A stretch of 64,000 nucleotides of DNA, from assembly GCA_000002435.2 (NCBI GenBank), contig CM018790.1; one strand, given 5' to 3'. Shown here in pieces: positions 31,243-57,221 of this stretch. The notes beneath the pieces are model-generated. The model did no database searches. It was not told the origin of the DNA and saw nothing but the letters and a program-made list of their open reading frames with translations. Position 1 is the first letter of the stretch. Every line of letters starts with the position of its first letter. The DNA is from Giardia intestinalis. Taxonomy: Eukaryota. The position numbers were made by a program, and so were the translations under genes.

Positions 31243-34200
31243 CTAGTTCTCCTGATCTTGCCACAGCCTTGTCCACTGCTCATAACGACGCTGGGCAAGC
31301 TGGCCATTCTCGTAAATAAGGAGAGGCTTGACTGAGTATTCATCCAAGTCCGGAAATCCATTGGTCATCCGTTCGAATGTATCTTCGGTGATAATTACTG
31401 GTTGCTCTATGTTAATCTTGGCACCACACATGAGACAAACACACTGACCATTCTTTATCTCCTCCTCCTTATAAACATCATAGAATCCCAGTTTTGAGCA
31501 TGTCCACAAACAAGTGGGACATTCGCAATAGTCTGCAAGCGTGATCTGGGCTCCTGTTGCGCTATCCAATGGTAGAACGGCCATACAATTTTCACAACTG
31601 AGTGACCCTAAGAGTACGTTTTCTCCACAGGAGCAGCATGAGCGATATTCAGCGTCAACAGGCTCCCCTTTCTTGTGCTTACGCACCACTTGCTCTACAG
31701 GTTTCTTATACTTCTCAGGTATCTTGTCTCCGTACTCTTTAAGCAAGATGCACGCACATTCATATGCTTCATTTGCATAGCGTGGACCTGCACGACTACA
31801 TTCCACGGTAGCCGGAAGAAGCACATTGACAGCAGCGTCTCCAAACCTACTTGCAAGCCTACTTGTACGATACAGACACATAGCAGCTTGCGCATGAAGG
31901 CCTGCCTTTGAGAAAACCTTGCCTGCTTCAAGCCCGTGCAGAAGAATAAGCAAGTCCCGAAATTTTGTGGGCATATGCTTGGCCTGCATTCTGAGCTTAC
32001 AAGCACACTGGATCAAGACAGATTTCGCTTTTGAGTATCTGCCCGCCTCTATTTCGCGGTCTGCAAGTAAATATGCGGTTCTAGCTGCGTCTCCATACTT
32101 CTCCATAGCCATGTAAAACTTGAACACATATAGCGGGGGGCGCTTACAGCCATCCAATTCTCCGTTAAGATATTTGAGAATCAGCTCAATAATGGAAACA
32201 GATTGCTTACATGATTTAAGCAGATCGAGAGCTTTGTCTATATCTGTCGATCCATCGCCGTAGTGAAGCAAGAGCTTGATAGCCGCCTCATGCTCCCCAA
32301 GCAATTCCAGGAAGTGCGCCGCAGCCCTAATGTTTCTAGGAACTTGTAGTGGCTGGGAGGAGGTTTCTGGAGTTTCGTCAAGCGGGCTAATATCCGGGTT
32401 ACTGCGTGTGACGGGTGCCGAAAAGTAACGCACCGCCTTTTTCAGAAACTCCTGGGGAGCACGCTCGTTAACAAGGCGAATTAGAATGTCTTCATTACTG
32501 GTCTGAATTGCAAGGTCAAATGCCTCATCGAATGCTCCACTCAGCACTCCGAAAAATATAGCCTTCTTTATGTTACCAGCTGTCCGGTGATAGAGGGAAA
32601 GGCTTGCTGAGGATCCTTTGAGCTCTGCCTCCAACTCATACACCGCCAAAGTAGTACGCTCCCCAGCGTGCGCCTTTTCGAGGAGAAGCTTTGTCTCTTT
32701 AACGGCTGACTCTGCTTCGGAGATCTTTCCTAGTGCAATCAGACAATCCACAATTTCACGACTCTGACCAGCGCGCTTGAAAAGAACCAGAGCCTTATCC
32801 GGATCGTCTTTCATGTAAACTCTCGCCAAGTCTGCGACAATATTCATATCGGTAACATTGTCTATAAGCCGCTCTGCCTCACCGTACTGCCGTGACTTGA
32901 TATAGCAGCCGACTGCTCGAGATAAAAGCAGCGGTGGGTCTATTTCTTTCAGATCCTTTTCTTGCACGATGTCCTGTATGCTAGTGGGGAGAAGCTCTGA
33001 GAGAAGCTTCTTAGTTGCTTCTACGTTAAGCACCGCATCTATCTCTTTAACTATGGAGATATCAATACCTGAGCTATCACCAGAGGCTGTCTGTGAAAGC
33101 GCAGAGTTTGCTATCGTTGTTAGGAGAGATGGAATGAGAGCAAAGAGAAGGAGAGGCTTGGTCCCCCCAGTACCTTGGATACCAGATCCACCGCCCCTAT
33201 TCCCGCCAACACGAATCATGTTAGTGTCTGTAGAATTATATATGTATGCATAGATGTTTAGCTCGCCACTAAGAAGGCCTGCTATCTCCTTTCTGAGCCT
33301 TGAGTAACACGCCTCTGCTAAGTTAGAGGAGGCTTCCAAAAAGAGAGCAGCTTCCGCAAAGCGCTTCTGCAGACATAGAATGTTTCCGCATTCCATGCAA
33401 AGGCGAGACCGCTGAAGGATATTCAAAGGGTCCTTGACCCTAGGAACAAACCGATTCGTCGCTTCTTTGCGAGGAGGAAGAGCCATTTCCTTCAGGTCTG
33501 AAAGCTTCCCTAACTGCGCGTAACAGCGTGACATGAGGCCTATCAGAAAGGGAATTAGTTTGGGCGGAATGCTGCTCCACATGAAGCGTGCTTCGCCTGA
33601 CTCCTGTCCTTGCTTGCTGTCATCCTTTAGCAAGTTCATGCAGACGTCAAGGCACTCTGGATATTGAAGCCTGTTCTCCAATTCTCCCGCCCACTGTATC
33701 AAGATCTCGCTTCTGACAGCTGTGGACCCTATCCTCGTTGCTAGCATGCTCGCAGTATTCCAATCTAAGCTATCCATACGGAAGGAGAGGGCCACGTTTG
33801 GCTTTCGGGACTTAAGGAGAAACCGCTCCGCTGCACTAAGATAGACGTCTGCCTTGCTCTGTCCCATGGCAAATGCCACGTTGCTACTATTATCTCCAGA
33901 TGCTGGAAGATCAGGGCATGCCATCAGCAGGGAAAGAGCCATAGCTGTGTTATTGTCATATTCGTTGATGCAGATTCTGGATAGAAAAAGGGATAACGCA
34001 GCTGGGTCGTTGCTGTGTGTTGTATTCATTGTGGACAGATTGCGAAGCAGGTCATTAACACCCTGTGCACCCCTAGAATCTAGGAACGTCGTATCCTGAT
34101 AAGTCCCAAGGCTATGCATAACGTGCTCTTCAGTTGTCCCATACAAAGAGAGCTCTCTGTAAGCAGTAAGCGCAGTGCTAAAGTCTGTAATACGAACTGC

Positions 34201-37080: not shown

Positions 37081-37083
37081 CAC

Positions 37084-37326
37084 GAAGGGGCCAATTAATT
37101 TTTGGCCATTTACTCTGCTTCACCGAGGCTGGTTTGCCAGCTGCTATCCGAGCAAGTCTCACGCGAACTACCACTCCAAGCAAAGCCCAAGATCCAGAAT
37201 CTGAAAGTCGGATTCCATCCAGCTCTGGTGAGAAAAGAAGACTTTATTTTCATCTCCCTAGGAGCTGTTGCTATTCCTCCCAGCGCCTTCTAAGACTTCC
37301 TCTTCCTCCGACCAGTTATGGGCAGC
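37084..37326. repeat. Left flank of the inverted repeat, containing the motif gatccagaatctgaaa shared with 53781-53800 and 54886-54900
   Basis: Direct sequence comparison: gatccagaatctgaaagtcggattcc (37191) vs gagatccagaatccgaaatcagaagg (54886), and the reverse complement at 53781-53800. Confidence 0.5.
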
Positions 37327-40300
37327 CAGGACTCAGTTCGCCTCTGCCAGCCAAGCACCCCAAGTCCTATTTCTTGTCGAGGGATTCACATGGGTCACGT
37401 GTGGGTCCGTCTGGACAGGCGGGGCGAGTGATTAGTGCCATCACTGGCTTCAAGCTCTCCGTTGCTCTGGGAGCTCCTTGAGACCGGCCAGGAAGGAGGC
37501 CTCCTGCCCCTCAGTGCTCTTACACCCAATGTTGACCGTCGAGCATAGCGCTTCGCTAGGTCTGTCGCCTCTGTGACTACCCTGTCGCGTCACTGTCATC
37601 GGCATGGGCAGTGAGTGGAGTATCTCCTTCAGCTCCTGGTGAGCAGGTTCTGTACCACGCAGTATGGGGGCATGCGCAGGGCCCCGAGGGACCGAGTCCA
37701 GGAGTGCAGCGCGTCCCAGCCGGAGGAAGGCCTCGACGCAGCTCCTCGGGACGGGGCACACTTGCCTGGGAGAGGCCGTCTGCTGTTGGGGCTCTCGTTA
37801 TGTCGAGCGAGGCCGCCGTGCCCATCAGCTTGTGTCTCCCTGTGCCATGCGAACACCACCCATGTGCAATCGGTGGAACGCAGTCTGCTCTGTCTCGAGG
37901 AAGGCCAGTGTCTGGGTCTCCAGGGGGCTCGGGACTGCCTTGTGGAGCGCATCATGATCGTCCCCTGATCGTGGTTGTCCTGTCTCGTTCTTGGGAAGAG
38001 GGCAGAACAAAAGTTCTTCTCCCGTCGGAGTCGCTTGGCACTTGAGTTCGAACTTTGGGTTTTGATCTTGGCCAATGCAGGGATGAGGGAGACCTGCTTC
38101 CCCAGAGCGGCGGTGGCTTGCATGGGAAGATCACTCAGATAGCAGGTGACAGCCCCACCCCGGCTAAAAAACTTGAGGCAGCCGTCGCGCCCGCCGCCCC
38201 CAGGACAGAGATTCTGCGTGCATGGCCAGCTGCCCTTGTCAGTTCGGTCTACTGGTCCGGTAGTCTGAGGACCTTCTGCGCCGCTTCTGATGTATGATGC
38301 ATCGCAACTGCTTATAGGGGTAAGCAGCATGAAAAGGCAATTGCATGTGTGGACATTGTACTATGACCGTCTCAGAGGGCCGAAGTCTCCAACTACAGAG
38401 CGCTGCACCGAGCAACACGCCCCACTGCCCTGCGCCGGTGGCTGCCTCCACCACCGTCTTCGTTGCACTTGGGCTGTGCCTGCCCAGCAGACTGAGCAGA
38501 GATTACAGAAGCTTCTCTAATAATGCACACACGCCGCATAAGGTCTGATGATGGAATGGACACCACCTGTCTGAGCTGTCTGCTATTGACGAGAGACAGC
38601 CCTTGGTTGCACTAGAGTGCTTTTGTTTAAGCATAAGGTCTTCGCACCTACTCCCCCATCAGCTATAGCGATAGCTGTATATCCAGAAGGGTCCTGCAGA
38701 GCGTTCCACCGTCTTTCAAGGTAAGGCATGGGCTCCATACCTATAGCTAAAAACAGAAATCCGTGCACCAAGTGTCACGAGTCTAGTATACTGACCGACC
38801 TGAATCGCAGTGCACTTGTCAAGGACCTGTGCACACGTTTGGATGCTCACTGCTAGTGGTAGACGGGCTTGTAAGGAAAATTGCTTCTGGTCGCGCTTGC
38901 CTTATAGTGTTTGATCCTGGGTGGCATGCCTCAGCAAAGGAAGATGCTATTTATATGCATAGAAGGCTATCCATGCACAGTGATTCCTGGAAAGCCGGTT
39001 CGCACGGAGAGGGTAGAGGCCATCAGCAAACCAGTGAGATACACCTGACGCTAGAGAGGCCAGCTACCGGCTCAGATTGCAGTGGTGACACTTGTAGTGC
39101 CCCTCTGACTTCTAAGCATGGAAACGTCACGGGGTCTGTGGGCAAACCGGACGCTCTTTTTGATTTTATACGTTTGTAGCAACGTAGTATTTATTGGGGT
39201 CTGCTTCGTCTGGAGTCGAGGAGGCTCGCTTTCTCTCCACATACAGATTAAGATCGATTGTAGGGGTATACTGTGCAGATCAGTACCAGTCAGTGTGGTC
39301 TCTGTCCACAGGTACCTCACTTGCGTCTTCCCGTGGCAGACATTCACCAACAACACCTCCGGCCTGTGTGGTGTTCTACAGTGTACCTTCACCTTCGACC
39401 AAGGGGCTGGTACACACGTTACGTAATTTAGATTGCTCATCAGTCAGGGTGGTATGGTCCGCTCTTGTTCTCCACTTGCATATCTCGTATAACCTGCTGA
39501 TAGCCTTTCCAGATTAGTATGCAGATGCTTCTATCGGTCCTGTAAGGCATGCGTCATGTAGGTAACCATTACAGGCCAGAGTCCTGTCTGCTAAGGAAAA
39601 GAACCACCAGTTTACCATGTGGACATCCGTTGTGCTCTCCAGTATCTCCTCGCCAGCCGCCATCTAGTTCTCCCTGCCGTTTGGAGCCCGTATGTATATT
39701 GTTACTGACAAGCACTTGGTTTCAATGGGCCCCTGGGACGTTAAGCACTTTACCCTGTGCAGTGGGTATGTTCAATGTGGGAGATACACAATCAGCATTG
39801 ACTTTCTCACTCATTGTTTGTGTAATTATTGTTGCTTCTTAGTCTAATTAGCAACCCAGATCATGGCCTCCAGTGTAGTGGTATTCTACCAACAGACAGC
39901 TGGCAGTGACTGTGGCACGTACTTTCATCAAGACACAGCCACCTGAGCAGGGGTATGAAATGGGTCCTTGTTATTCTACGATTCTGCTAATTCCTCAGAT
40001 AGCAGGGATCAGAGCAGCTTATTGTTAGTATTGACTATCTCCGTGTCTCCATTTATCTTCGTCGCTTGAGATACGCTTGACTCCAAAGACTCGAAAAGGT
40101 GCTATACTGTGCTCAGATCTGCGAGTCTCAATTAAGTAAGGCTACCATCTCGGTGGCTGCGCTGAGGTAGCTACACACCTTGTGGGCTCTGCAAGGTGCA
40201 TTACAGCCCAATGGAACCCTTACCTATCGAATGCAGGCCGCAATGCAGCCTCGCTGGTGCACGATTTCTTAAGATGACTGATCAATCCGCAGAGTCCACC

Positions 40301-41916
40301 CTACTCATGTAGAGCCAGCGATAGATGACGATATCAACCCTGTAGATAATCTACACTGTACATCAGTGGTCCTATAGGTAAGTAAGGGTCAGCCATCCCG
40401 CAGTAATGAGCATTAGCGGTGTCTTTCCCAAGAATAAATGGGCGAGTTGTCAGCAGTCACAACATCCGCTTTCTCAATGAAGACCGCCCTGCCACTGAGG
40501 CCCAGGCCAGTCTCCTATAAGATCCTTGACAAGATTGTATCCAAGATGTATATCTATGGTGCTCCCCGACTCAAGGTGTATGCTGCTGAACCTCCCATTT
40601 CTCGTATCAGCTTATGAATATCGATGTCCCTGCCTCTAGCAGAATTGTATTAGAAATAATATGAGATATGGCGCCTTCAGTCGGGTTGTTCGGATTCCCA
40701 GCTGCACAACGGGGGCCCACTTTCGTATTGTGCATCAGAAAGACATGTCATGCCGTAATGATGCAACCTTTCGTATGGTATAATTCTTGCGTCAAGAGAT
40801 AGGGCACTTGTATCGATCGGCATATCTACCCATGGCCAGTTATAGCTTGGACCAAAGGTCACAAACGAACGCTATCTAACTCCCTTATCAACAGACGGGA
40901 GATCTGACCATCCTTCTGCCTCACACAAAGCCACAAAGGATTCTAGATCAGGATTTCGGCCAGTAGCTGGCAAGTCATTATACTCTCCTGGATTTCTGCT
41001 CCCTCTACTATAGGTATCCACATGTAGGAAGCTCTGAGGGCCTAAAGTCCTACACCAATAGGCTCAGGGTACTGCAAACCCAGGTGTTTTCACTAGTGGT
41101 GGTAGTGATGGTCTCAAGATGATCCAGAAGGGATGACAGGAGTCCTGGTCAATCAACTTAGAAGGTGGCACGGCTTGGTCAGTGATTCTCCTTGTCCAGA
41201 TGCGGGACTGCTTGTCTGCGCCTTCTAAGCTTCACATGGCATCCCGTCATGCGATAGGATATCTTAATAATATTCATTAAAAAAGGCCAGAAATGACACA
41301 CTGTACATCCAACAGACTGCTGCACCTTATTATCTAATCTTTGCCGGTTCACACCTTCCACAAACCCCAGTGGTTGCTGCGATCTTCTCTTAGGATCTCG
41401 TAGGGGTCTTTCATTAAGGGAGGCTCCCCTGTGACGACCAGAGGTCGCAGACATAATCCAAAGGGATGCGAATGCTACGGAGGCGGAGAGAAGGTCATCG
41501 GCGCACGGGGGTCCGCAGGGGCCCGACCCGTCCAGGGAAAGCACAGGGAGCTGGCTTATCAGAGACGCAAAGACGCCAGGAGAAAAGCCAGCAACGAACC
41601 CACGGCACAGTGGAGGCACTCGAGCCGTCCTTTGATTGGCCGCAGGGCAGAGAGGCGGCAAGCGTGTGGAGAGGTCTCACCACTTATTTTTGGATTTTCT
41701 GTTTCCCTGCGTGTTGTGCAGGGAGCATGGGGTTCAGACCCAGGGAGCTCGCGTGGGCTGTATGCAGTAGATGTGCTTAGTATTCGATGAGCTTCTATGC
41801 CCTAAGCAGAGGTATCGTAGAAGACGAATCTCTTTGGATTAATTAGCATAGTGTAGTCAGGTCTTTAGTCTTAAGTATCTTATTCTTACTTATACGACAA
41901 GCTGAGAAGGACCTCA

Positions 41917-43803
41917 ATGTTGCTGGTAGTTTTCTACTTTGTGCTGAGTGCTCTTGCGGGAGCATGTACTGTTGAGGCTAACACACGAGATTGTACAGAG
42001 AATAAGTGCGAAATGGTTGGCGAAACAGAAATCTGTACACAATGCAAGACGGGCGGAAATGTTCCCATTGATGGAGTGTGTAAGGCGGTTGCTGAGGCCG
42101 CCAATAAGTGTACGAAGAGCGATGACAATCCGGTAGGCGCAGGAGATACGACTTGTGGAAAATGCGTAAACGCATACTTCATGTACAAAGGCGGATGTTA
42201 TCTGGCCGGTGCAGCTGGACCGGGTACTGGTACTAAAATGTGCAAGCAGGCTGCTGGTGGCAAGTGTACGCAAGCTGCTGATGCGAAGAACTACTTCATT
42301 CCACCAGCAAATACAGACGATACTCATGATTCTGTCGTTTGGTGCGGTGATGAAATAGGCGTAACACTTAGTAGTACTCAGTATAAGGGTGTTGCTAAGT
42401 GCCTAGTATGTGATGCTCCCGGTGGGGCTGGTGCTGCAACGTGCACAACCTGTGAAGACGGGTACTTTGGTGCTACTTGTAAAAAATGCCATGAAAGTTG
42501 TAGGACATGTGAAGCTGCAGAAGAGAATAAGTGCAAGTCGTGTACAGATGGCTACTTCCTTGGAGCAACCAATGGAGCCGCAGGTAAGTGCCTTAAGTGT
42601 AACTCTAAAACAGAGGAAGGCTGGCACGGAGTTGACAACTGTGCTAAGTGCACGTCATCTAATACGCAAAACACCCCTGCGACATGCACTGAATGCGTTG
42701 CAAATTTCTATCTAAAACCAGCCGCGGGTGCAACTCCTTCTAGTTGCGTCACAGAAACGGGGTGCGGTGACGGATACTTCCCAACTATTGTTGATGAGAT
42801 CAAGAAATGTATCGCTTGCGGTACAGCTGCAAATGGTGGCATAGATGACTGCAAAAAGTGTTCTCTCAAAACAACGTCTGCGAAGGCAGGAATAGAGATC
42901 GTATGCACTGAATGTAATACTAAATGGCTCAGTCCTCTAGGAGACGCATGTTTGGATAGCTGTCCTCCTGGAACACATGCTGATTCTGGCAATATTTGTC
43001 CTTTATGTCATAGCACATGTGCAGAGTGTGATGGCAATGCAGAAGCCACATCGTGCAGAGCATGTTATCCCGGATTTGTGCTGAGTTATGGCAGCGATAA
43101 AGTCAGAGGCACATGTATTCAAGAATGTACCGGCAAATACGCAGAAAATTGTGAAGAAAATATGTGTACGGCTGTCCTTGGAGGCTCCAAGTATTGTAGC
43201 AAGTGTAAGGCCGGATTCGTTCCAATAGATGGTGTCTGTGTATCGACAGCTTCACGAGCAGTAACCGGATGTACGCCAGGAAATGGAGTATGCATTGCAT
43301 GTACAGACTCATACTTCTTACAGTCTGGAGGATGCTATCAGTCGACAGTGTTTCCTGGTAATAAGCTGTGTACACTAGCTAGTAATGGAAAGTGTACAGC
43401 ATGCTCCAACGGGCAAACAGCAGATGGTCAAGGTTCGTGCCCAGCGTGTAATGCCATCTGTGCAACATGTGCGGCAGGAAATATAGACCAATGCCAAACT
43501 TGCTTCCCTGGATACTATAAATCCGGAACTAAGTGCGTAAAATGTAGCATTACTGACAACGGAATAACTGGTGTAGAGAACTGCATAAGCTGTGCCCCTC
43601 CAGCTGGTAATAGTGGTCCTGTCACTTGCTATATGAAGACAGATGACACTAACGATGGTGGTAACGACAACAACGGCGGAAGCACGAACAAGAGCGGGCT
43701 CTCCACAGGGGCCATCGCGGGGATCTCCGTGGCTGTGATTGTTGTTGTAGGTGGTCTCATAGGCTTCTTGTGTTGGTGGTTCATATGTAGAGGGAAGGCG
43801 TAA
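41917..43803 (+). CDS. Variant-specific surface protein (VSP), copy A of an identical inverted pair
   Basis: 628 aa: signal peptide [16 protein letters not shown], dozens of CXXC motifs, GGCY motifs ([18 protein letters not shown]), a transmembrane helix and the CRGKA* tail. AGTAAAC polyA motif at 43811-43817. Confidence 0.9.
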   Translation: [628 protein letters not shown]

Positions 43804-43810
43804 CTTAGGT

Positions 43811-43817
43811 AGTAAAC
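43811..43817 (+). terminator. AGTRAAY polyadenylation signal (agtaaac) of VSP copy A; its mirror for copy B is at 46537-46543 on the minus strand
   Basis: Motif lies 8 nt after the TAA stop. Confidence 0.4.
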
Positions 43818-44322
43818 GCGTTACTTTATGTAACCTATGTAGATGTGCTGCTGGGGCTATCTGAGCGCGGTCCAGAGATCGTGTGGGTAATCATCGCTCC
43901 TTCCTGACCAGTCCAGAGACGATGGCTGGTTGTGAATAATATAACGAGAGAATCCTCTCCAGTGATACCTCCAGAGCCTGGTGCATTCCTCAATCATTTC
44001 GTGGGCGTGTGCTCAGACCGAATGCGTACATCGGTCCTTTAGGGGTTCAGGCCCTCTTGCAGACTCTCTGATCCGCCGGCGCCTCTCCTTGGTCTGCCGC
44101 CTTGGTGGATGAGGCTTGGGTCGCTGTCTTTTTTAGATGCCCCCATCTGTCAGAGGGCTGCCCTCGGGCTCTCTTCTGGCCGCCCCTCGGTGTCCGTCCG
44201 GCTGTGGCCCGGGCAGTGCTTCTACAGTCGCGGTCACTTGGGTATCAGCGGGCCAGCTGGTGGGCGAGGCGGGGTTGGTGAGGCTGGAGGGGACTGGTGG
44301 GGGCTGAGGTGGGCGGTGTTGT

Positions 44323-46031
44323 ATGCGCCCCTGACCTCTTGGTGAGTGGGGTGATCGCAGCTGTTATGACTGGGGGCTGTCCATCTGTGACTCATCCCTC
44401 TGTGTGCTCGTGGTCTGTGAGTGCCTCCACCCAGACAACCCTCAGGAGCCGGAGAGTGGTGCCAGCCTAGCTGTCCTCCCTCCTCGGTGCCTCCCAGTGC
44501 AGACTCACCGGAGGCCACTACCCTGTCAGCCACCCGAAGGAGCCGTGCACGCCGGGACAGAGAGAGTGACCAAGGGGAGTCAAGCAGCCCTGCCATGAGA
44601 GTGCACAGCAACCAGCCTGGACTGTATGGGCTGCTCGAACAGTGGTAGTGGCAGACGACTCCCTCTGACAGCAGCCCTGATGACGGCACTGGCCTGCTCT
44701 TGAGACTGAATGACAGTGAACACAGACGGACATGAGCGCAGGAGGACCATCCACACACGAACAGACTGTGTGGACCCAGAGAGGACTAGGGTCTGCTCAG
44801 ACACACGCTGACTGTGCCCCATACGAGAGTACCAGGCAACCACCCGAGCACCCGAGAGGCAGGTACAGCCACGGGCACTAGAGATCCCCAGCCAGACACA
44901 TTGCCATGCTCATCCACAGGGGCATCAGAGGGCCAGGTGGGGTCACTCTCACAATCAGGGGCCTGATAGGAAGCCAGAGGACCCGAGCAGCACAGCACAG
45001 CAGGCCCAAGGGAGGCACACTCCAGGCAGGTGAGCAGTGGCAGAGCCTTGACAGCTGCCAGCCCCCCATGACACCCAGGCAGGCACCAGACTCCGAAGAC
45101 TCGCTGGCCTCCACCTATGACCCGAGAGGGCAGCAACCAGAGGAGCGAGGAGGCCTTCGGATGACACAAGAGGCCGGCTGTCCAGCGGGCGATGGAGCAC
45201 AGGTGGCCTCTGAGCACCATAAGGCACAGGACTGACCATCAGAGTGATGCCCGGTCACAGAGACGACCACGAGCACCCTCCACCCACTCTGAGGGGCTGT
45301 CGATCATTCACTGCCTCTCATAGCAGACCTCCTTAAGGGCAGTGCAGTGGGTCCCAGCTCATGCAGGAGGGTGCACACCCCTCAGTATAGGACACCCCGA
45401 CTCTCCCCGAGGGGTCATCAGAGCCATGAGAGGTGTCAAGGTCCTGATAGATCACACCGGGAACCCCTCGAATGGGCACAGCAGGTGAGGTATGGGTGAC
45501 CCCAGCGTGCTCCTCTCTGCATGGTAGAGCATCCTGAGACCAAGGGGGTCACCTCTGCCTACGGATAATACACAGCACTCCATGACAAGGACCCACCAGG
45601 AGCAGCACAGCTGACCACGGGGACAGTGCAGTCACCAGTGCCCCACCGTGCCAGTCTTCTGGGCCATCACACTAGAGGCACGAGAGAACCCCATCCCATC
45701 CACCGGCTCATCTATGCCCCTGCTGGCCCGAGGTGAACTAACCTTGTCGAGGCACTGGACAGGGCATGCCAGGGGGCCCAGCAGACCCGCACAGAGCAAC
45801 AGGAGGGGCTGCGATGGCCTGCCTCACCCTTCACGCACCAGCCAGACAGAGCAGCAGTACTGCCTGAGACATGCAGGGGCTAAGGGAGGCGCTCAGTCGG
45901 GGGACACGACACGATCGTCGGTGCCTCTGTCTCGGGAGTGCAACGCAGGCTGGTGATCAGACACAACCACCTTAGCAAACAGAGCGGGGATCACCCACCA
46001 CCGCAATGACCCACCGGACCCAGGGGCGCAT
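44323..46031. other. Unique 1.7 kb spacer at the centre of the inverted repeat; GC-rich and strongly T-poor on the plus strand
   Basis: ORFs in this interval have no mirror partners. Composition is dominated by C, A and G runs (e.g. cacagacggacatgagcgcaggaggaccatccacacacgaacagac). Overlapping junk ORFs lie on both strands. Confidence 0.7.
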
Positions 46032-49000
46032 ACAACACCGCCCACCTCAGCCCCCACCAGTCCCCTCCAGCCTCACCAACCCCGCCTCGCCCACCAGCTG
46101 GCCCGCTGATACCCAAGTGACCGCGACTGTAGAAGCACTGCCCGGGCCACAGCCGGACGGACACCGAGGGGCGGCCAGAAGAGAGCCCGAGGGCAGCCCT
46201 CTGACAGATGGGGGCATCTAAAAAAGACAGCGACCCAAGCCTCATCCACCAAGGCGGCAGACCAAGGAGAGGCGCCGGCGGATCAGAGAGTCTGCAAGAG
46301 GGCCTGAACCCCTAAAGGACCGATGTACGCATTCGGTCTGAGCACACGCCCACGAAATGATTGAGGAATGCACCAGGCTCTGGAGGTATCACTGGAGAGG
46401 ATTCTCTCGTTATATTATTCACAACCAGCCATCGTCTCTGGACTGGTCAGGAAGGAGCGATGATTACCCACACGATCTCTGGACCGCGCTCAGATAGCCC
46501 CAGCAGCACATCTACATAGGTTACATAAAGTAACGCGTTTACTACCTAAGTTACGCCTTCCCTCTACATATGAACCACCAACACAAGAAGCCTATGAGAC
46601 CACCTACAACAACAATCACAGCCACGGAGATCCCCGCGATGGCCCCTGTGGAGAGCCCGCTCTTGTTCGTGCTTCCGCCGTTGTTGTCGTTACCACCATC
46701 GTTAGTGTCATCTGTCTTCATATAGCAAGTGACAGGACCACTATTACCAGCTGGAGGGGCACAGCTTATGCAGTTCTCTACACCAGTTATTCCGTTGTCA
46801 GTAATGCTACATTTTACGCACTTAGTTCCGGATTTATAGTATCCAGGGAAGCAAGTTTGGCATTGGTCTATATTTCCTGCCGCACATGTTGCACAGATGG
46901 CATTACACGCTGGGCACGAACCTTGACCATCTGCTGTTTGCCCGTTGGAGCATGCTGTACACTTTCCATTACTAGCTAGTGTACACAGCTTATTACCAGG
47001 AAACACTGTCGACTGATAGCATCCTCCAGACTGTAAGAAGTATGAGTCTGTACATGCAATGCATACTCCATTTCCTGGCGTACATCCGGTTACTGCTCGT
47101 GAAGCTGTCGATACACAGACACCATCTATTGGAACGAATCCGGCCTTACACTTGCTACAATACTTGGAGCCTCCAAGGACAGCCGTACACATATTTTCTT
47201 CACAATTTTCTGCGTATTTGCCGGTACATTCTTGAATACATGTGCCTCTGACTTTATCGCTGCCATAACTCAGCACAAATCCGGGATAACATGCTCTGCA
47301 CGATGTGGCTTCTGCATTGCCATCACACTCTGCACATGTGCTATGACATAAAGGACAAATATTGCCAGAATCAGCATGTGTTCCAGGAGGACAGCTATCC
47401 AAACATGCGTCTCCTAGAGGACTGAGCCATTTAGTATTACATTCAGTGCATACGATCTCTATTCCTGCCTTCGCAGACGTTGTTTTGAGAGAACACTTTT
47501 TGCAGTCATCTATGCCACCATTTGCAGCTGTACCGCAAGCGATACATTTCTTGATCTCATCAACAATAGTTGGGAAGTATCCGTCACCGCACCCCGTTTC
47601 TGTGACGCAACTAGAAGGAGTTGCACCCGCGGCTGGTTTTAGATAGAAATTTGCAACGCATTCAGTGCATGTCGCAGGGGTGTTTTGCGTATTAGATGAC
47701 GTGCACTTAGCACAGTTGTCAACTCCGTGCCAGCCTTCCTCTGTTTTAGAGTTACACTTAAGGCACTTACCTGCGGCTCCATTGGTTGCTCCAAGGAAGT
47801 AGCCATCTGTACACGACTTGCACTTATTCTCTTCTGCAGCTTCACATGTCCTACAACTTTCATGGCATTTTTTACAAGTAGCACCAAAGTACCCGTCTTC
47901 ACAGGTTGTGCACGTTGCAGCACCAGCCCCACCGGGAGCATCACATACTAGGCACTTAGCAACACCCTTATACTGAGTACTACTAAGTGTTACGCCTATT
48001 TCATCACCGCACCAAACGACAGAATCATGAGTATCGTCTGTATTTGCTGGTGGAATGAAGTAGTTCTTCGCATCAGCAGCTTGCGTACACTTGCCACCAG
48101 CAGCCTGCTTGCACATTTTAGTACCAGTACCCGGTCCAGCTGCACCGGCCAGATAACATCCGCCTTTGTACATGAAGTATGCGTTTACGCATTTTCCACA
48201 AGTCGTATCTCCTGCGCCTACCGGATTGTCATCGCTCTTCGTACACTTATTGGCGGCCTCAGCAACCGCCTTACACACTCCATCAATGGGAACATTTCCG
48301 CCCGTCTTGCATTGTGTACAGATTTCTGTTTCGCCAACCATTTCGCACTTATTCTCTGTACAATCTCGTGTGTTAGCCTCAACAGTACATGCTCCCGCAA
48401 GAGCACTCAGCACAAAGTAGAAAACTACCAGCAACATTGAGGTCCTTCTCAGCTTGTCGTATAAGTAAGAATAAGATACTTAAGACTAAAGACCTGACTA
48501 CACTATGCTAATTAATCCAAAGAGATTCGTCTTCTACGATACCTCTGCTTAGGGCATAGAAGCTCATCGAATACTAAGCACATCTACTGCATACAGCCCA
48601 CGCGAGCTCCCTGGGTCTGAACCCCATGCTCCCTGCACAACACGCAGGGAAACAGAAAATCCAAAAATAAGTGGTGAGACCTCTCCACACGCTTGCCGCC
48701 TCTCTGCCCTGCGGCCAATCAAAGGACGGCTCGAGTGCCTCCACTGTGCCGTGGGTTCGTTGCTGGCTTTTCTCCTGGCGTCTTTGCGTCTCTGATAAGC
48801 CAGCTCCCTGTGCTTTCCCTGGACGGGTCGGGCCCCTGCGGACCCCCGTGCGCCGATGACCTTCTCTCCGCCTCCGTAGCATTCGCATCCCTTTGGATTA
48901 TGTCTGCGACCTCTGGTCGTCACAGGGGAGCCTCCCTTAATGAAAGACCCCTACGAGATCCTAAGAGAAGATCGCAGCAACCACTGGGGTTTGTGGAAGG

Positions 49001-52000
49001 TGTGAACCGGCAAAGATTAGATAATAAGGTGCAGCAGTCTGTTGGATGTACAGTGTGTCATTTCTGGCCTTTTTTAATGAATATTATTAAGATATCCTAT
49101 CGCATGACGGGATGCCATGTGAAGCTTAGAAGGCGCAGACAAGCAGTCCCGCATCTGGACAAGGAGAATCACTGACCAAGCCGTGCCACCTTCTAAGTTG
49201 ATTGACCAGGACTCCTGTCATCCCTTCTGGATCATCTTGAGACCATCACTACCACCACTAGTGAAAACACCTGGGTTTGCAGTACCCTGAGCCTATTGGT
49301 GTAGGACTTTAGGCCCTCAGAGCTTCCTACATGTGGATACCTATAGTAGAGGGAGCAGAAATCCAGGAGAGTATAATGACTTGCCAGCTACTGGCCGAAA
49401 TCCTGATCTAGAATCCTTTGTGGCTTTGTGTGAGGCAGAAGGATGGTCAGATCTCCCGTCTGTTGATAAGGGAGTTAGATAGCGTTCGTTTGTGACCTTT
49501 GGTCCAAGCTATAACTGGCCATGGGTAGATATGCCGATCGATACAAGTGCCCTATCTCTTGACGCAAGAATTATACCATACGAAAGGTTGCATCATTACG
49601 GCATGACATGTCTTTCTGATGCACAATACGAAAGTGGGCCCCCGTTGTGCAGCTGGGAATCCGAACAACCCGACTGAAGGCGCCATATCTCATATTATTT
49701 CTAATACAATTCTGCTAGAGGCAGGGACATCGATATTCATAAGCTGATACGAGAAATGGGAGGTTCAGCAGCATACACCTTGAGTCGGGGAGCACCATAG
49801 ATATACATCTTGGATACAATCTTGTCAAGGATCTTATAGGAGACTGGCCTGGGCCTCAGTGGCAGGGCGGTCTTCATTGAGAAAGCGGATGTTGTGACTG
49901 CTGACAACTCGCCCATTTATTCTTGGGAAAGACACCGCTAATGCTCATTACTGCGGGATGGCTGACCCTTACTTACCTATAGGACCACTGATGTACAGTG
50001 TAGATTATCTACAGGGTTGATATCGTCATCTATCGCTGGCTCTACATGAGTAGGGTGGACTCTGCGGATTGATCAGTCATCTTAAGAAATCGTGCACCAG
50101 CGAGGCTGCATTGCGGCCTGCATTCGATAGGTAAGGGTTCCATTGGGCTGTAATGCACCTTGCAGAGCCCACAAGGTGTGTAGCTACCTCAGCGCAGCCA
50201 CCGAGATGGTAGCCTTACTTAATTGAGACTCGCAGATCTGAGCACAGTATAGCACCTTTTCGAGTCTTTGGAGTCAAGCGTATCTCAAGCGACGAAGATA
50301 AATGGAGACACGGAGATAGTCAATACTAACAATAAGCTGCTCTGATCCCTGCTATCTGAGGAATTAGCAGAATCGTAGAATAACAAGGACCCATTTCATA
50401 CCCCTGCTCAGGTGGCTGTGTCTTGATGAAAGTACGTGCCACAGTCACTGCCAGCTGTCTGTTGGTAGAATACCACTACACTGGAGGCCATGATCTGGGT
50501 TGCTAATTAGACTAAGAAGCAACAATAATTACACAAACAATGAGTGAGAAAGTCAATGCTGATTGTGTATCTCCCACATTGAACATACCCACTGCACAGG
50601 GTAAAGTGCTTAACGTCCCAGGGGCCCATTGAAACCAAGTGCTTGTCAGTAACAATATACATACGGGCTCCAAACGGCAGGGAGAACTAGATGGCGGCTG
50701 GCGAGGAGATACTGGAGAGCACAACGGATGTCCACATGGTAAACTGGTGGTTCTTTTCCTTAGCAGACAGGACTCTGGCCTGTAATGGTTACCTACATGA
50801 CGCATGCCTTACAGGACCGATAGAAGCATCTGCATACTAATCTGGAAAGGCTATCAGCAGGTTATACGAGATATGCAAGTGGAGAACAAGAGCGGACCAT
50901 ACCACCCTGACTGATGAGCAATCTAAATTACGTAACGTGTGTACCAGCCCCTTGGTCGAAGGTGAAGGTACACTGTAGAACACCACACAGGCCGGAGGTG
51001 TTGTTGGTGAATGTCTGCCACGGGAAGACGCAAGTGAGGTACCTGTGGACAGAGACCACACTGACTGGTACTGATCTGCACAGTATACCCCTACAATCGA
51101 TCTTAATCTGTATGTGGAGAGAAAGCGAGCCTCCTCGACTCCAGACGAAGCAGACCCCAATAAATACTACGTTGCTACAAACGTATAAAATCAAAAAGAG
51201 CGTCCGGTTTGCCCACAGACCCCGTGACGTTTCCATGCTTAGAAGTCAGAGGGGCACTACAAGTGTCACCACTGCAATCTGAGCCGGTAGCTGGCCTCTC
51301 TAGCGTCAGGTGTATCTCACTGGTTTGCTGATGGCCTCTACCCTCTCCGTGCGAACCGGCTTTCCAGGAATCACTGTGCATGGATAGCCTTCTATGCATA
51401 TAAATAGCATCTTCCTTTGCTGAGGCATGCCACCCAGGATCAAACACTATAAGGCAAGCGCGACCAGAAGCAATTTTCCTTACAAGCCCGTCTACCACTA
51501 GCAGTGAGCATCCAAACGTGTGCACAGGTCCTTGACAAGTGCACTGCGATTCAGGTCGGTCAGTATACTAGACTCGTGACACTTGGTGCACGGATTTCTG
51601 TTTTTAGCTATAGGTATGGAGCCCATGCCTTACCTTGAAAGACGGTGGAACGCTCTGCAGGACCCTTCTGGATATACAGCTATCGCTATAGCTGATGGGG
51701 GAGTAGGTGCGAAGACCTTATGCTTAAACAAAAGCACTCTAGTGCAACCAAGGGCTGTCTCTCGTCAATAGCAGACAGCTCAGACAGGTGGTGTCCATTC
51801 CATCATCAGACCTTATGCGGCGTGTGTGCATTATTAGAGAAGCTTCTGTAATCTCTGCTCAGTCTGCTGGGCAGGCACAGCCCAAGTGCAACGAAGACGG
51901 TGGTGGAGGCAGCCACCGGCGCAGGGCAGTGGGGCGTGTTGCTCGGTGCAGCGCTCTGTAGTTGGAGACTTCGGCCCTCTGAGACGGTCATAGTACAATG

Positions 52001-53027
52001 TCCACACATGCAATTGCCTTTTCATGCTGCTTACCCCTATAAGCAGTTGCGATGCATCATACATCAGAAGCGGCGCAGAAGGTCCTCAGACTACCGGACC
52101 AGTAGACCGAACTGACAAGGGCAGCTGGCCATGCACGCAGAATCTCTGTCCTGGGGGCGGCGGGCGCGACGGCTGCCTCAAGTTTTTTAGCCGGGGTGGG
52201 GCTGTCACCTGCTATCTGAGTGATCTTCCCATGCAAGCTACCGCCGCTCTGGGGAAGCAGGTCTCCCTCATCCCTGCATTGGCCAAGATCAAAACCCAAA
52301 GTTCGAACTCAAGTGCCAAGCGACTCCGACGGGAGAAGAACTTTTGTTCTGCCCTCTTCCCAAGAACGAGACAGGACAACCACGATCAGGGGACGATCAT
52401 GATGCGCTCCACAAGGCAGTCCCGAGCCCCCTGGAGACCCAGACACTGGCCTTCCTCGAGACAGAGCAGACTGCGTTCCACCGATTGCACATGGGTGGTG
52501 TTCGCATGGCACAGGGAGACACAAGCTGATGGGTACAGCGGTCTTGCTCGACATAACGAGAGCCCCAACAGCAGACGGCCTCTCCCAGGCAAGTGTGCCC
52601 CGTCCCGAGGAGCTGCGTCGAGGCCTTCCTCCGGCTGGGACGCGCTGCACTCCTGGACTCGGTCCCTCGGGGCCCTGCGCATGCCCCCATACTGCGTGGT
52701 ACAGAACCTGCTCACCAGGAGCTGAAGGAGATACTCCACTCACTGCCCATGCCGATGACAGTGACGCGACAGGGTAGTCACAGAGGCGACAGACCTAGCG
52801 AAGCGCTATGCTCGACGGTCAACATTGGGTGTAAGAGCACTGAGGGGCAGGAGGCCTCCTTCCTGGCCGGTCTCAAGGAGCTCCCAGAGCAACGGAGAGC
52901 TTGAAGCCAGTGATGGCACTAATCACTCGCCCCGCCTGTCCAGACGGACCCACACGTGACCCATGTGAATCCCTCGACAAGAAATAGGACTTGGGGTGCT
53001 TGGCTGGCAGAGGCGGACTGATCCTAA
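46032..53027. repeat. Right arm (~7.0 kb) of the inverted repeat, reverse complement of 37327-44322 at about 99.9% identity
   Basis: See left arm. The only differences seen are a roughly 20-bp hypervariable patch (left 37806-37823 / right 52531-52548) and two single substitutions near left 38105-38125. Confidence 0.92.
46551..48437 (-). CDS. Variant-specific surface protein (VSP), copy B, convergent with copy A
   Basis: Translated protein is identical to copy A, 628/628 aa. Confidence 0.9.
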   Translation of the reverse strand: [628 protein letters not shown]

Positions 53028-53832
53028 CCGCACCGAAGAGTGGAGGCCTGGACCACCTGCCGGGGGTCTGCCGCAGCAGCTGGCAGTGCCTGACACCCTC
53101 GAGTAGACGGGCGCCGGTTGTAGAGAGAGACGGCCTGACGGTGAACCGGTCCTGATCGCTCGTGATGCTTCGGATGACACCCTTCAGAGAGGTGGCCCTG
53201 GACCGACGCCTCAGCAGACCGAAGCATCACCCCAAGCGTGCTGTGCGGTGCAGATGGACCAGCTCATACGTCATTGAGCCAGACGCACTGCATAGAATGA
53301 TGCGCCGACACGATCTCGTACTGGGTGACTGGCCACCTGTAAGAGCGCACTGCGATCCATGAGCAGAGGGGTGGGCCTCCTCCCCCGACACCACCGCATG
53401 GGATTACTCCATCGGCATCCATGAACGCATACTATGACTCCAAGACAGAGGCGCAGGGGGAGCACACCCTTGATAATGGAACAGATGGTGCCCTCCACGA
53501 GGAGGCGAAGAGGCACCCGAGGAACGGGGCAGGCACCCGGGGTCGTGGCGTGGGATCTTCGTCATGGAGCACCAGCACCAGGGCCACGTGGAGGCCAGAT
53601 CGCCGCGACAGACGCAAGACCTGAGATAGCAGGTGCTCAATAGATGTCAGACGATGGTTGACCCCGACGGGCCAGAGGAAGGAAAGTCCTAGGGGGCACC
53701 GCGAGGAGCGGCAGGGACTCCCGAGAGGCAGAGCAAAGTTCCTTCTTCTTCTCCCATCGGAATCGCTACATCCGATCTCAGATTTCGGATTCTGGATCTC
53801 AACCGATGCAGGGACGGGAGGTACTTGTTTGT

Positions 53833-54591
53833 TCAGGGCGGCGACTCGCACGGGGGATTTACTTGGACAGCAACTAGCAAACTAATCTCAGTGAAACAGG
53901 GTAAACATTGTGATATGATCAGCAAGTAGGCGAGTTCACTCACAAGTTTCCTAGGCTGCATCTGTAAGTATGGATCTACAATACCCTCACTCTCGAGAAA
54001 AGATGCTACCTCGGAGTGATTCCATCTATTGGCCGTACGGATGGCATGTACGCCACCTATGTCCTTCTCCTTCTCCAGTAGCAACTTGACACACTCCAGA
54101 TGATCATGCCCTGCTGCAAGCACGAGGGCAGTAAAACCTCTGCCTTTCTGCATGCCTCCCTCAGCATCCAGGAGTAGTCTCACGACCTCGGTGCGGCCAA
54201 AATGTGCCGCCCACATGAGGGCTGTCCATCCATTACTGCTCCTCATACCGCTCTCGCACCTCATCAGCAGCTTCACCACTCTGGTGTGTCCGAGCACCGC
54301 AGCAACCATCAGGGCCGTCCCCCCACTTATGTCTTTCCTCCCTGCCTTGACAAGCTTCGCCACCATCCTTGCCTGATAAGGGATGTAGCGCTTCACCGCC
54401 TTCACGTCGTTTCGGTTGGCTGCCTTCATAAGCGTGGTGACCCCGTTCTCGTCCACGCTGCCTTCATCATCCATTTCTGAAGGCTCAGTTGGGTTTCCTG
54501 CGCCCTCTTCGCTCGTGTCCCTTTCGGGCATGAGGGGTGGGGCGCAGTCGCACTCCTGAAGGAGTTGACCTAAATCATCCGCAGACGACAT
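53833..54591 (-). CDS. Ankyrin-repeat protein (21.1-like), short and possibly 3'-truncated
   Basis: Five ankyrin units (GVTTLMKAANRNDVKAVKRYI, GGTALMVAAVLGHTRVVKLLM, GWTALMWAAHFGRTEVVRLLL, GFTALVLAAGHDHLECVKLLL). The last ~35 aa (…ISQCLPCFTEISLLVAVQVNPPCESPP) are non-ankyrin and run into the dispersed repeat fragment at 53781-53800. ATG at 54591. Confidence 0.6.
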   Translation of the reverse strand: MSSADDLGQLLQECDCAPPLMPERDTSEEGAGNPTEPSEMDDEGSVDENGVTTLMKAANRNDVKAVKRYIPYQARMVAKLVKAGRKDISGGTALMVAAVLGHTRVVKLLMRCESGMRSSNGWTALMWAAHFGRTEVVRLLLDAEGGMQKGRGFTALVLAAGHDHLECVKLLLEKEKDIGGVHAIRTANRWNHSEVASFLESEGIVDPYLQMQPRKLVSELAYLLIISQCLPCFTEISLLVAVQVNPPCESPP

Positions 54592-54994
54592 TTTTACTGC
54601 GGGTCACATAGAGCTCGTGTGTCAGTACGCCTGCAATTCCTGGGCCTCTTGCAGCGCATCCAGATGGCGCATCATACAAAGACTGCACCCCTTGAATTCC
54701 TTCCGTCGCCCCTGCTATGTGTAGCAAGGTGCAATGGAGTGACCTTCGGCCGTGGCGTCAGGCACGCTGTGAACAGAAGAGTTCATTCTGCTTCCTCTGG
54801 TTGGTTTGTCAGCTGTTGCCTGAACAGGTCCTCCATGCGAGCCGCCGCCGCCCCAGGCTGGCAGTCTCTCGCTCGCTCACCAGCCGAGATCCAGAATCCG
54901 AAATCAGAAGGTCAGATATCGTCCAGTTCTGACGGGGAAGATCTGTGCCTCCTCCCCGAGGCGGTAGCGAGTACAGATGAGCGTTCGAGGCTGG

Positions 54995-55153
54995 TAATGG
55001 CACTAATCACTCGCCACGCTGGTCGAGATGGACCCACACGTGACCCATATGAATCCCTCGACAAGAGATGGGGCCCCTGGGGTGTCTGGCTGGCAGAGGC
55101 GGACTGATCCTGACCGCACTGAAGAGTGGTGGCGGCCTGGGCCACCTACCGGG
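54995..55153. repeat. Third, partial copy (~85% identity) of the inverted-repeat arm terminus, similar to 52908-53064 and to the reverse complement of the left arm end 37327-37490
   Basis: ctggtaatggcactaatcactcgccacgctggtcgagatggacccacacgtgacccatatgaatccctcgacaagag...tggctggcagaggcggactgatcctgaccgcactgaagagtgg aligns with 52908-53064. It is preceded by the gagatccagaatccg motif at 54886. Confidence 0.7.
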
Positions 55154-55282
55154 CATCTATATTGGTGAAACAGGGTAAGTTCTCTTCGCTGAACACCAAA
55201 TATAAGACCCATGCGCAGTGTTCCTCAAAGCGAACAAGGTTTGCTGGCATCAAGAAGAATATCGTCATGAGTAATATGCAGT

Positions 55283-56242
55283 TTACTTTGGAGCTTCTGA
55301 AAAGACCTGAGGAGACGTCGACCATGTAAGTTTAGTGCCCTTTTCCTTGCCGTCGTCCTCTACCTCATCGGCCTTCCAGTCCCAGGTCCAGTTCGCCTTT
55401 CCATGACGAATAATAGATCCATCTTCGGTGGCCGAGTAGACGGGTGTAAAGTTAGCATTTGTCCTATCCCACATAGGATTCTTGCTCTTTGAAGGCTTTT
55501 TCCGCGGAGTCTTATTCCGTATAACAGGCTCTCCTGGTTTAGGATCCCATGGGTAGAGCATCTCGCTCTTGCGCATAATCTTGATGGAAGGCATATACTT
55601 CCGCTTGAAAAGCCAATCTACAAGGTCGTTTGCCATGTCAGGCATAGCCTCGACCTTAAGCTTAAGTCTGTTGAAGGTGGGGCTTTTTGTCTGCAGATTA
55701 GGGTGCACCCTGAAGCTTGGCGGGTCCTTCTTGAAGATTATCTGACCCCCCTTAATACATTGAACAACGTGCGGGACAAAGTCTGGTTTTACAATGACAT
55801 GAAGATTATCCGTAGAATCGAAGGGGTAATACTGACAAAACTCATCTAGAAGCGTTACGCAGTCAGTGGCCATGGTGCAGTCTGCCAAATGGTACATCAC
55901 TATCATGATCATGGCCTCACCGGGGTACTCGTCGGCAAACTTCTGAATTGCCTTCTTACCGGTGTCGTACTGATACTGACTGTTCCATAACATACTCTGG
56001 ACGTTGACTCGACCGACTGGGATAGAGGTTACGTTGAAATGGATGCATATCTTTGCTATCAGCTGCTCGTTGGTAGTTGTAACCAAAGCATATGCCTCGT
56101 TTCCATTATAATACACTAGGACGCGCTCGAGCATGAGGTTCTCGCACTGCTTATTGACAAAGTTGTGGAGCTGGTAAACGGAGGTCCTGGGGTCAAACCC
56201 TATGAATTTCGTCGTCGGAAGATAGTCTTCTTTCGTGGCCAT
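55283..56242 (-). CDS. Hypothetical protein, 319 aa, Trp/Lys-rich C-terminus
   Basis: Clean frame, ATG at 56242 preceded by cttgttttttaactttaacaacc on the minus strand. No motif recognised. Confidence 0.6.
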   Translation of the reverse strand: MATKEDYLPTTKFIGFDPRTSVYQLHNFVNKQCENLMLERVLVYYNGNEAYALVTTTNEQLIAKICIHFNVTSIPVGRVNVQSMLWNSQYQYDTGKKAIQKFADEYPGEAMIMIVMYHLADCTMATDCVTLLDEFCQYYPFDSTDNLHVIVKPDFVPHVVQCIKGGQIIFKKDPPSFRVHPNLQTKSPTFNRLKLKVEAMPDMANDLVDWLFKRKYMPSIKIMRKSEMLYPWDPKPGEPVIRNKTPRKKPSKSKNPMWDRTNANFTPVYSATEDGSIIRHGKANWTWDWKADEVEDDGKEKGTKLTWSTSPQVFSEAPK

Positions 56243-56439
56243 GAGCGAGGCAGGTTGTTAAAGTTAAAAAACAAGTGAGTGCATTTTTTGAATCAAAGGA
56301 CATGTTTATTCATCCAGACTGCAGATCACGATAACAACCAAGGCGAAGACACAGGATAACCGACAAGCGTAAATGTAGTAATACAGAAAGCATAGACCTA
56401 ACTATGCCGCGCCATCCAGGACTTAGGCGCACAATTGAC

Positions 56440-56838: not shown

Positions 56839-57221
56839 TTTTGCTTTGACTTTTTAATTTGATTGGCCTAGTTTATATTGTATGATTGTGCAATTGGGAT
56901 CAGCCACTCAACCTGTTGCTGCCTTTCTGCTGTCATCTGGTAAGCTCTAGGATGGCAGCGTTCCTGTCTCTCTGCCCTACCAGGCGCTTTTGACATGTAT
57001 CGCTCATGGGGTGTTTGCTCAATCTTCCTGATCTACAAAGTTGTCTAGTTACTTCTCATCGGGAAAGGACTTACCGTCTAGTTGAAAGGCTTGATTGAAA
57101 TACTATAAAAAAGTGCATGGGCTATGTAGCCACTCGTTTCTCGTTGTTCTAATCCTTTACTCCTCTGCCGTCTATCTTCAGCAACACCGGTGCTCTGACC
57201 AATTAAAAAGTTAATTAAAAA

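Follow-up and report, generated by a model that had tools for sequence, protein, structure and literature searches.

We analysed a 64,000-nucleotide (nt) window of Giardia intestinalis DNA and found that its gene-poor island, which separates a large WD40 gene from the hypothetical gene GL50803_101918, is mostly one 7,001-nt unit present twice and inverted. The two copies stand in mirror image around a GC-rich spacer, giving two convergent genes for the same variant-specific surface protein (VSP). Exact protein matches to KAE8301980-84 place the locus on chromosome 2 (1,539,535 bp) of G. intestinalis WB (C6). Very probably, this is the GL50803_11521/d11521 locus, a mirror-image unit at a synteny break; on the simplest reading its VSP-bearing segment was gained in the stem of assemblages A and E, and a later inverted duplication and homogenisation of the arms would have followed. 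As both the inverted VSP pair and the synteny break have been described before, the island is ordinary for Giardia; from what is known of the family, its share in the antigenic-variation repertoire would be a single VSP present in two copies. An earlier sequence-only reading of the window had recognised the island but overlooked its mirror-image structure.

Architecture of the island and identity of the VSP pair

With long open reading frames (ORFs) taken as genes, the coding fraction was 0.249 within positions 37081-55282 (18,202 nt) versus 0.865 in the remaining window, and the three widest gaps of the window (5,395, 4,836 and 2,747 nt) all lie inside the island. The gene-poor character proposed by the sequence-only reading is thereby borne out, as are its edges: nucleotide homology to assemblage B ends at 37109 and restarts at 55276, only a few bases from where that reading had drawn them. 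ORFs, Pfam and the WB annotation likewise agree with it that the island holds two identical 628-aa VSP ORFs, one ankyrin gene and nothing else. In the public WB annotation, accessions KAE8301980 to KAE8301984 run consecutively through the IFT144-like gene, the two VSPs, the ankyrin gene and GL50803_101918, so that this annotation also has only three island genes. Two of the earlier descriptions needed qualification. The roughly 12 kb reported to lack an ORF indeed contains no credible gene, but much of it had been counted twice because of the inverted repeat; the non-coding DNA of the island amounts to 13.7 kb, of which the unique part is ~8.6 kb. The surroundings are dense, as stated, but not uniformly so, being interrupted by a 2,063-nt GC-rich gap at 8265-10327.

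The coordinates of the inverted duplication, delimited by a repeat search, are given in Table 1 with those of the other features. Base-by-base comparison of the two arms revealed 6 differences over 7,001 nt, all of them transitions (37338, 37809, 37812, 37817, 37820 and 38115), four of which cluster within 12 nt (37809-37820). The ORF table is correspondingly mirror-symmetric about x+y=90354. Chance cannot account for an inverted repeat of 7 kb with only 6 mismatches. GC content reaches 57-62% at the outer arm ends, in the spacer and around the ankyrin gene. Within the upstream region U, the outer ~1.2 kb is GC-rich (57-59%), and the inner ~3.1 kb (38560-41720) is homologous to the assemblage E isolate P15 and to a metagenome contig, L021. 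No internal inverted symmetry was found in the spacer.

Table 1. Positions of the features of the island and its flanking genes in the 64,000-nt window.
Feature	Position	Strand	Description
Left flanking gene, WD40 protein IFT144/WDR19-like	31243..37080	-	1945 aa; KAE8301980
Left junction	37110..37332	.	Island DNA, 223 nt; separates the repeat from the WD40 gene's conserved promoter-proximal motif
Left arm of inverted duplication	37333..44333	+	7,001 nt; upstream non-coding U, VSP gene and 3' flank
U, upstream of VSP	37333..41916	.	4,584 nt, non-coding
VSP copy 1	41917..43803	+	628 aa; GL50803_11521/d11521 pair; vsp-126 of Adam 2010; Pfam PF03302, 1.8e-91
Extended VSP polyadenylation signal	43803..43819	+	ACTTAGGTAGTAAACGC; overlaps the stop codon; read from sequence
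3' flank in arm	43804..44333	+	530 nt, from stop codon to abrupt divergence point
Element S	44150..45560	.	~1.4 kb, GC-rich, non-coding; crosses the inner arm boundary at 44333; starts ~350 nt past the VSP stop
Spacer between arms	44334..46020	.	1,687 nt; GC 62%; 14.5% T on + strand; CpG observed/expected 0.37
Right arm, mirror of 37333-44333	46021..53021	-	7,001 nt
VSP copy 2	46551..48437	-	Protein identical to copy 1; convergent with copy 1
R1	52910..53064	+	~155-nt repeat across the outer end of the right arm
Ankyrin repeat protein 1	53833..54591	-	252 aa; KAE8301983; Pfam Ank_2, 2.2e-49
R2	54994..55153	+	Direct copy of R1, 85.6% identity
Right flanking gene GL50803_101918, hypothetical	55283..56242	-	319 aa; syntenic in A1, A2, E and B

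The left edge of the structure is sharply defined. Homology of GS, P15 and sample ERR3333380 to the left side of the window stops at 37107-37109, the left junction (37110-37332) is 99% identical to the assemblage A2 isolate DH, and an independent short-read contig (L017) ends at 37362, that is, k-1 bases (30 nt) into the left arm. A separate observation concerns the outer ~500 nt of this arm, where WB and DH differ strongly: identity is 99% just outside the arm and 98% further in, but only 63-92% over 37319-37800 (L020:190-680), a hypervariable patch that includes the four clustered arm-to-arm transitions.

Both VSP ORFs encode the same 628 residues (tblastn, 100% at both sites), and the protein matches KAE8301981/KAE8301982 and XP_001705557 exactly. 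It carries the Pfam PF03302 domain and a C-terminus (...FLCWWFICRGKA) with the CRGKA tail; its signal peptide, MLLVVFYFVLSALAGA, was assigned by eye only. The extended polyadenylation signal of the gene matches the 16-nt consensus reported for VSPs (PMC3091692), and together these features identify it as a VSP gene. The two ORFs are arranged as a tail-to-tail identical pair, in which identical, convergent ORFs are separated by 2-4 kb of non-coding DNA (here 2,747 nt) and their flanks diverge abruptly: identity ceases at 44333/46021, 530 nt beyond the stop codon. Among the pairs listed by Adam 2010 (PMC2996952, Table 5), tail-to-tail identical pair 126 diverges 530 nt into its 3' flanks and has its ORFs 2748 bp apart, and Xu 2020 (PMC7000408, Table 2) lists d11521/11521 on Chr 2 in the orientation -> <-, with 628 aa and 2747 bp. 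Because the protein matches are exact and these metrics coincide, we identify the locus with vsp-126 and d11521/11521. Identical inverted VSP pairs in WB number 14 (Adam 2010), 19 (Xu 2020) or 20 (2022 preprint, 10.1101/2022.03.07.483299), and G. muris also has them (7).

The interval across Giardia assemblages and its origin

The sequence-only reading had suggested comparing the interval between the flanking genes across Giardia, and we carried out this comparison. In all four assemblage B assemblies (GS, GS_B, BAH15c1 and SRR1957176, the last assembled from short reads by Logan), the large WD40 gene comes immediately after the ortholog of the 319-aa gene with nothing in between, gene calls placing the two 5-77 nt apart. 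In GS the site is an ordinary 77-nt Giardia intergenic spacer containing no remnant of the island, and the empty site in B falls 27-30 nt upstream of the start codon of the WD40 gene. Assemblage A carries the island or parts of it. Among A1 (WB-like short-read contigs), the right contigs stop inside R2 and the left contig stops 30 nt into the arm; in A2 (DH), the right contig includes the ankyrin gene and ends at 53654, and the left contig enters the left arm and ends at 37991.

Assemblage E holds a homologous but differently built island. In P15, ~2.1 kb of unrelated DNA is followed by 3.1 kb collinear with 38699-41718 (~64%) and next by a complete 235-aa VSP, which resembles the WB VSP at its N- and C-termini (tblastn). 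Perfect inverted arms, 1,753 nt or longer (0/1,753 differences), enclose a 1,065-nt segment in which this is the only VSP, and stop 272 nt upstream of the gene (L015:14528-19098, contig ACVC01000052). The second arm runs to the end of the contig, and the P15 contig with the WD40 gene ends 262 nt upstream of that gene. In two other divergent samples, ERR3333380 (L018:1-46) and ERR3333383 (end of L016), contigs finish at the island junctions. In one of these samples the WD40 gene is preceded by unrelated sequence that finishes, 30 nt before the gene, with a stop codon and an AGTAAA-like signal, a hint that the same site has been rearranged in further lineages.

With the flanking genes adjacent in B and homology ending sharply at 37109 and 55276, the island is an insertion relative to B, in agreement with the lineage-specific VSP insertion proposed by the sequence-only reading. 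This reading of the locus is already in print. Jerlström-Hultqvist 2010 (PMC3091692, Additional file 9) entered it as "Insertion of gene cluster in WB", listing the ankyrin gene (then Protein 21.1, GL50803_1713), mirrored hypothetical ORFs, GL50803_11521 and a partial second VSP; opposite these it gives one VSP (GLP15_2589) for P15 and one coordinate for GS. As a rule, the surroundings of VSPs have a raised G+C content, long intergenic regions and breaks in synteny (PMC3091692; preprint 10.1101/2022.03.07.483299), and VSP neighbourhoods tend towards being gene-poor (PMC7000408).

Since the site is empty in B, the simplest reading is a gain in the stem of A and E, which the P15 genome paper groups together (PMC3091692). 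A VSP-bearing segment would have been gained at the site in the common ancestor of the two assemblages, a later inverted duplication would have had its junction inside a conserved element (element S, Table 1), and arm-to-arm recombination or gene conversion would keep the arms 99.9% identical. Region U mismatches by 35% between WB and P15, close to the third-position divergence of the flanking genes (25-30%); the upstream region is therefore orthologous between A and E and drifts neutrally. The arms are near-identical (~100%) within WB and within P15, whereas the same upstream DNA has diverged between the two lineages, a pattern that would arise either from an old palindrome that is continually homogenised or from inverted duplication that recurs at the locus. 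The different inner limits of the arms in WB and P15 keep the second option in play. Raised GC at the arm ends and in the spacer would fit frequent conversion.

Several points weigh against this account. Loss in B explains the pattern among A, E and B equally well, and homology searches with both flanking proteins returned no G. muris ortholog from which the polarity could be read. The P15 arms flank a single VSP whereas the WB arms contain theirs, and the repeats may therefore be independent and recent. The A2 contigs, stopping at 37991 and 53654, fall short of showing the palindrome; sequence, finally, can bear on gene conversion, and on any expression state, only indirectly.

It is possible, if on balance unlikely, that the WB and P15 inverted repeats are independent recent duplications and not one old converted palindrome. 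The WB arms include the VSP and 530 nt of its 3' flank, those of P15 end 272 nt upstream of a lone VSP, and near-perfect identity is what a very young duplication is expected to show. Duplication of the same upstream region at the same locus on two occasions would, however, be a coincidence unless the site is a hotspot, and the many identical inverted VSP pairs in WB, also found in G. muris, suggest a recurrent or maintained state. We regard as rather unlikely the alternative that the island is ancestral and was cleanly deleted in B. One loss has the same explanatory power as one gain when only A, E and B are informative, and the B arrangement is not universal, given that the ERR3333380 and ERR3333383 contigs break at both junctions and that one of them has unrelated DNA upstream of the WD40 gene. 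Yet the B site is a normal 77-nt intergenic spacer without island remnant, lineage-specific insertions typically contain members of the VSP and ankyrin families, and the published catalogue scores the locus as an insertion in WB (PMC3091692 for both).

Content of the non-coding DNA and element S

The duplicated unit, by the comparisons below, is mostly neutral non-coding DNA that hides no genes, and it is because of this neutrally drifting DNA that the locus is gene-poor. Six-frame Pfam searches of 37110-41916, 43804-46020, 53022-53832 and 54592-55282 returned no family above threshold; a Crystallin match (E=0.0058) was discarded as sub-threshold, scoring 17.1 bits against a cut-off of 23.2. 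Rfam yielded nothing, whether the whole window was searched at the gathering threshold or the island at E<=0.1, no tandem repeats were found, and tblastn with all window proteins and the P15 VSP detected no pseudo-VSP or pseudo-ankyrin pieces outside the three genes. WB-P15 mismatches were also sorted by codon phase. Two control genes showed the expected periodicity and no gaps, with counts of 97/14/3 (p=6e-31) for the 319-aa gene and 255/69/29 (p=2e-54) for the first 3 kb of the WD40 gene. Region U gave 375/351/362 (p=0.67), with 55 gap runs, of which 5 were multiples of three, and it also has frameshifting indels against L021. Conserved, unannotated genes in the interval, for which the sequence-only reading had allowed, were seen neither in the six-frame Pfam searches nor as WB-P15 codon periodicity.

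The long ORFs in the GC-rich parts, such as the 233-aa ORF that is the longest in U, are a product of strand-skewed, GC-rich DNA in which stop codons are rare. Two spacer ORFs were likewise rejected as proteins. The 144-aa ORF has only three metagenome relatives, with amino acid identities of 60-73% for the two closest and a partial 55% for the third; the underlying DNA is ~88-90% identical, well above the amino acid identity, and contains many 1-2 nt indels. Among 1.84 billion representatives, the 174-aa ORF gave one weak match (E=1.1e-07), confined to a short part of a protein of 2,560 aa.

That this DNA nevertheless conceals conserved genes, or a decayed mobile element that carried the VSP in, strikes us as very improbable. 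Retrotransposon remnants do lie between some head-to-head WB VSP pairs (PMC7000408; 2022 preprint), old annotations placed mirrored hypothetical proteins on both arms (PMC3091692), and the 233-aa arm ORF has been deposited in UniParc. The six-frame searches of all non-coding parts, however, revealed no reverse transcriptase, endonuclease or other Pfam domain, coding periodicity is absent between WB and P15, and the long ORFs sit in stop-poor DNA of the kind just described. Nor is a target-site duplication obvious when the junctions are read by eye, and the R repeats lie within the island and enclose the ankyrin segment alone. Finally, we rejected as extremely improbable that the palindrome is an artefact of the long-read WB assembly, for although foldback chimeras can create false inverted duplications and an exact-protein lookup of the VSP gene returned no record, the older Sanger assembly already contained this pair, with identical values of 530 nt and 2748 bp, the repeat stands inside a 1.5 Mb chromosome between unique genes, a short-read contig from a different data set breaks off k-1 bases into the arm, where a genuine two-copy boundary would stop it, and the arms differ at 6 positions.

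One portion of the non-coding DNA behaves differently from the rest. A search with the spurious 144-aa spacer ORF returned three metagenome ORFs, and two of the Giardia contigs carrying them, L021 and L022, were fetched. L021 (6,457 nt) follows the order of the WB left arm, with a homolog of U (68%), a different VSP of 506 aa, the 3' flank (75%) and the left 1 kb of the spacer (89.6%); L022 contains part of the spacer (87.6%) and the 3' flank (79%). In a three-way alignment scored per 100 nt (L021:479-1600 and L022:1-1180), element S was 85-99% identical to these contigs, whereas the DNA beside it, in the 3' flank and U, was only 65-79% identical to WB. Many 1-2 nt indels, together with codon-phase counts of 21/15/32 against WB and 18/22/21 against L022, which show no strong or consistent bias, indicate that S is non-coding. 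It shares the low T content (14.5% on the + strand) and the CpG observed/expected ratio (0.37) of the spacer. The right third of the spacer (45564-46020) has no relative, and a scan of JGI metagenome contigs for a conserved 27-mer of S gave no match.

The two metagenome contigs could be orthologs from other assemblages, in which case S is constrained, or paralogous VSP loci, in which case S is a homogenised repeat. Spacers of different duplicated pairs can be highly similar (preprint 10.1101/2022.03.07.483299) and tail-to-tail inter-ORF distances are mostly 2.4-2.8 kb (PMC2996952; PMC7000408), both of which favour S as a shared module. A more far-reaching proposal, which we hold to be improbable, is that S could be a functional or recombinogenic non-coding module that seeds inverted VSP duplication. 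Such a module would explain the near-constant 2.4-2.8 kb spacing, and read-through across it might yield a hairpin RNA, with VSP sense and antisense strands, that feeds the proposed VSP silencing of the RNA-interference type. The evidence for such a module consists of its ~90% identity next to faster-drifting neighbours and of the WB arm boundary lying inside it. S is the only part of the locus that might repay more work.

Neighbouring features and comparison with known systems

The ankyrin segment at the right end of the island is bracketed by R1 and R2, and R1 has a mirror copy, R', at 37327-37444. Its gene is present in A2, on the DH right contig at 96% identity, and was undetected in P15 by blastn against the P15 contig L015. 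A paralog, KAE8306054 (221 aa, 91% identity), lies on another WB contig of 4.0 Mb. All WB short-read contigs entering from the right (the Logan contigs L001-L006) stop in R2, 115-223 nt past the 319-aa gene; their ends map to about 55060-55170, with 55060 confirmed by blastn for L001. The paralog, the bracketing repeats and the contig breaks in R2 suggest that the ankyrin segment, or R itself, is a dispersed duplicate.

On the left, the island adjoins a WD40 gene that had been labelled IFT172. We rejected this label in favour of IFT144/WDR19 of the IFT-A complex, to which both structures and Pfam point (IFT144 in PDB 8bda_I, 4.6e-47; WDR19, 2.5e-42; Beta-prop_WDR19_1st, 3.3e-25); the protein is ~600 residues longer than its IFT144/WDR19 homologs. 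The gene is syntenic in all assemblages, with orthologs in B, E and A2, and in every lineage its start codon is preceded by the AT-rich motif GGCCAAAAATTAATTGGCC, just upstream of which lies the left edge of the island.

Elsewhere in the window, a second VSP gene occupies 10328-11689 (453-aa ORF; Pfam VSP, 3.6e-73), the 3' end of which is 77% identical to the island VSP. It is preceded by the 2,063-nt stretch at 8265-10327, which has a GC content of 57-61% and overlapping ORFs on both strands, and 8265-11689 is a smaller instance of the gene-poor, GC-rich VSP neighbourhood. In the 979-nt gap to the right of GL50803_101918 (56243-57221), a small ORF at ~56440-56838 on the minus strand encodes 132 aa in A1, A2 and E and 119-123 aa in B. 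No Pfam family matches this ORF, which may be a genuine conserved gene; the gap would then be smaller.

The closest known system is the family of identical inverted VSP pairs, with vsp1267 as prototype (PMC2996952; PMC7000408). The locus shares with it the tail-to-tail identical ORFs 2,747 nt apart and the divergence 530 nt past the stop, and shows no essential difference, this very pair being listed in both papers. The published tables give no upstream extent for tail-to-tail pairs; here identity continues for 4,584 nt upstream, and the arms, at 7.0 kb, are not confined to the gene with a few hundred bases beside it. The locus also resembles the non-syntenic, GC-rich VSP regions (PMC3091692; PMC7000408; 10.1101/2022.03.07.483299) in its low coding density, its blocks of 57-62% GC, its VSP and ankyrin content and its absence from another assemblage. 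VSPs have been called rarely syntenic (PMC3091692), but here WB and P15 share both the position of the VSP and homologous upstream DNA.

With the VSP pair, the insertion relative to B and gene-poor, GC-rich VSP neighbourhoods all in print, the locus matters little as a discovery. It is nonetheless a clean worked example of a VSP unit with kilobases of neutral upstream DNA at a synteny break, mirrored, with copies that are identical while the locus diverges between assemblages. The entries for this locus in the published tables do not include the 7 kb arm length, the precise empty site or the contrast between slowly changing S and its fast-drifting surroundings, and these three could serve as starting points for a genome-wide study of the origin of inverted VSP pairs.

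Outside Giardia, the ampliconic palindromes of the human Y chromosome are large and are held uniform by arm-to-arm gene conversion. The Giardia locus is similar in that arms of kilobase length, matching at more than 99.9% of positions, surround a unique spacer, and in combining identity within a genome with divergence between lineages. It differs in being much smaller, in its mostly non-coding arms, in that conversion would have to be deduced from the arms themselves, and in the different arm limits of P15. In the yeast 2-micron plasmid and in plastid genomes, inverted repeats flank a unique segment that can flip by recombination. A comparable geometry is present here, with P15 arms of at least 1,753 nt flanking a 1,065-nt segment that holds one VSP and WB arms flanking a 1,687-nt spacer; no recombinase is encoded at the Giardia locus, however.

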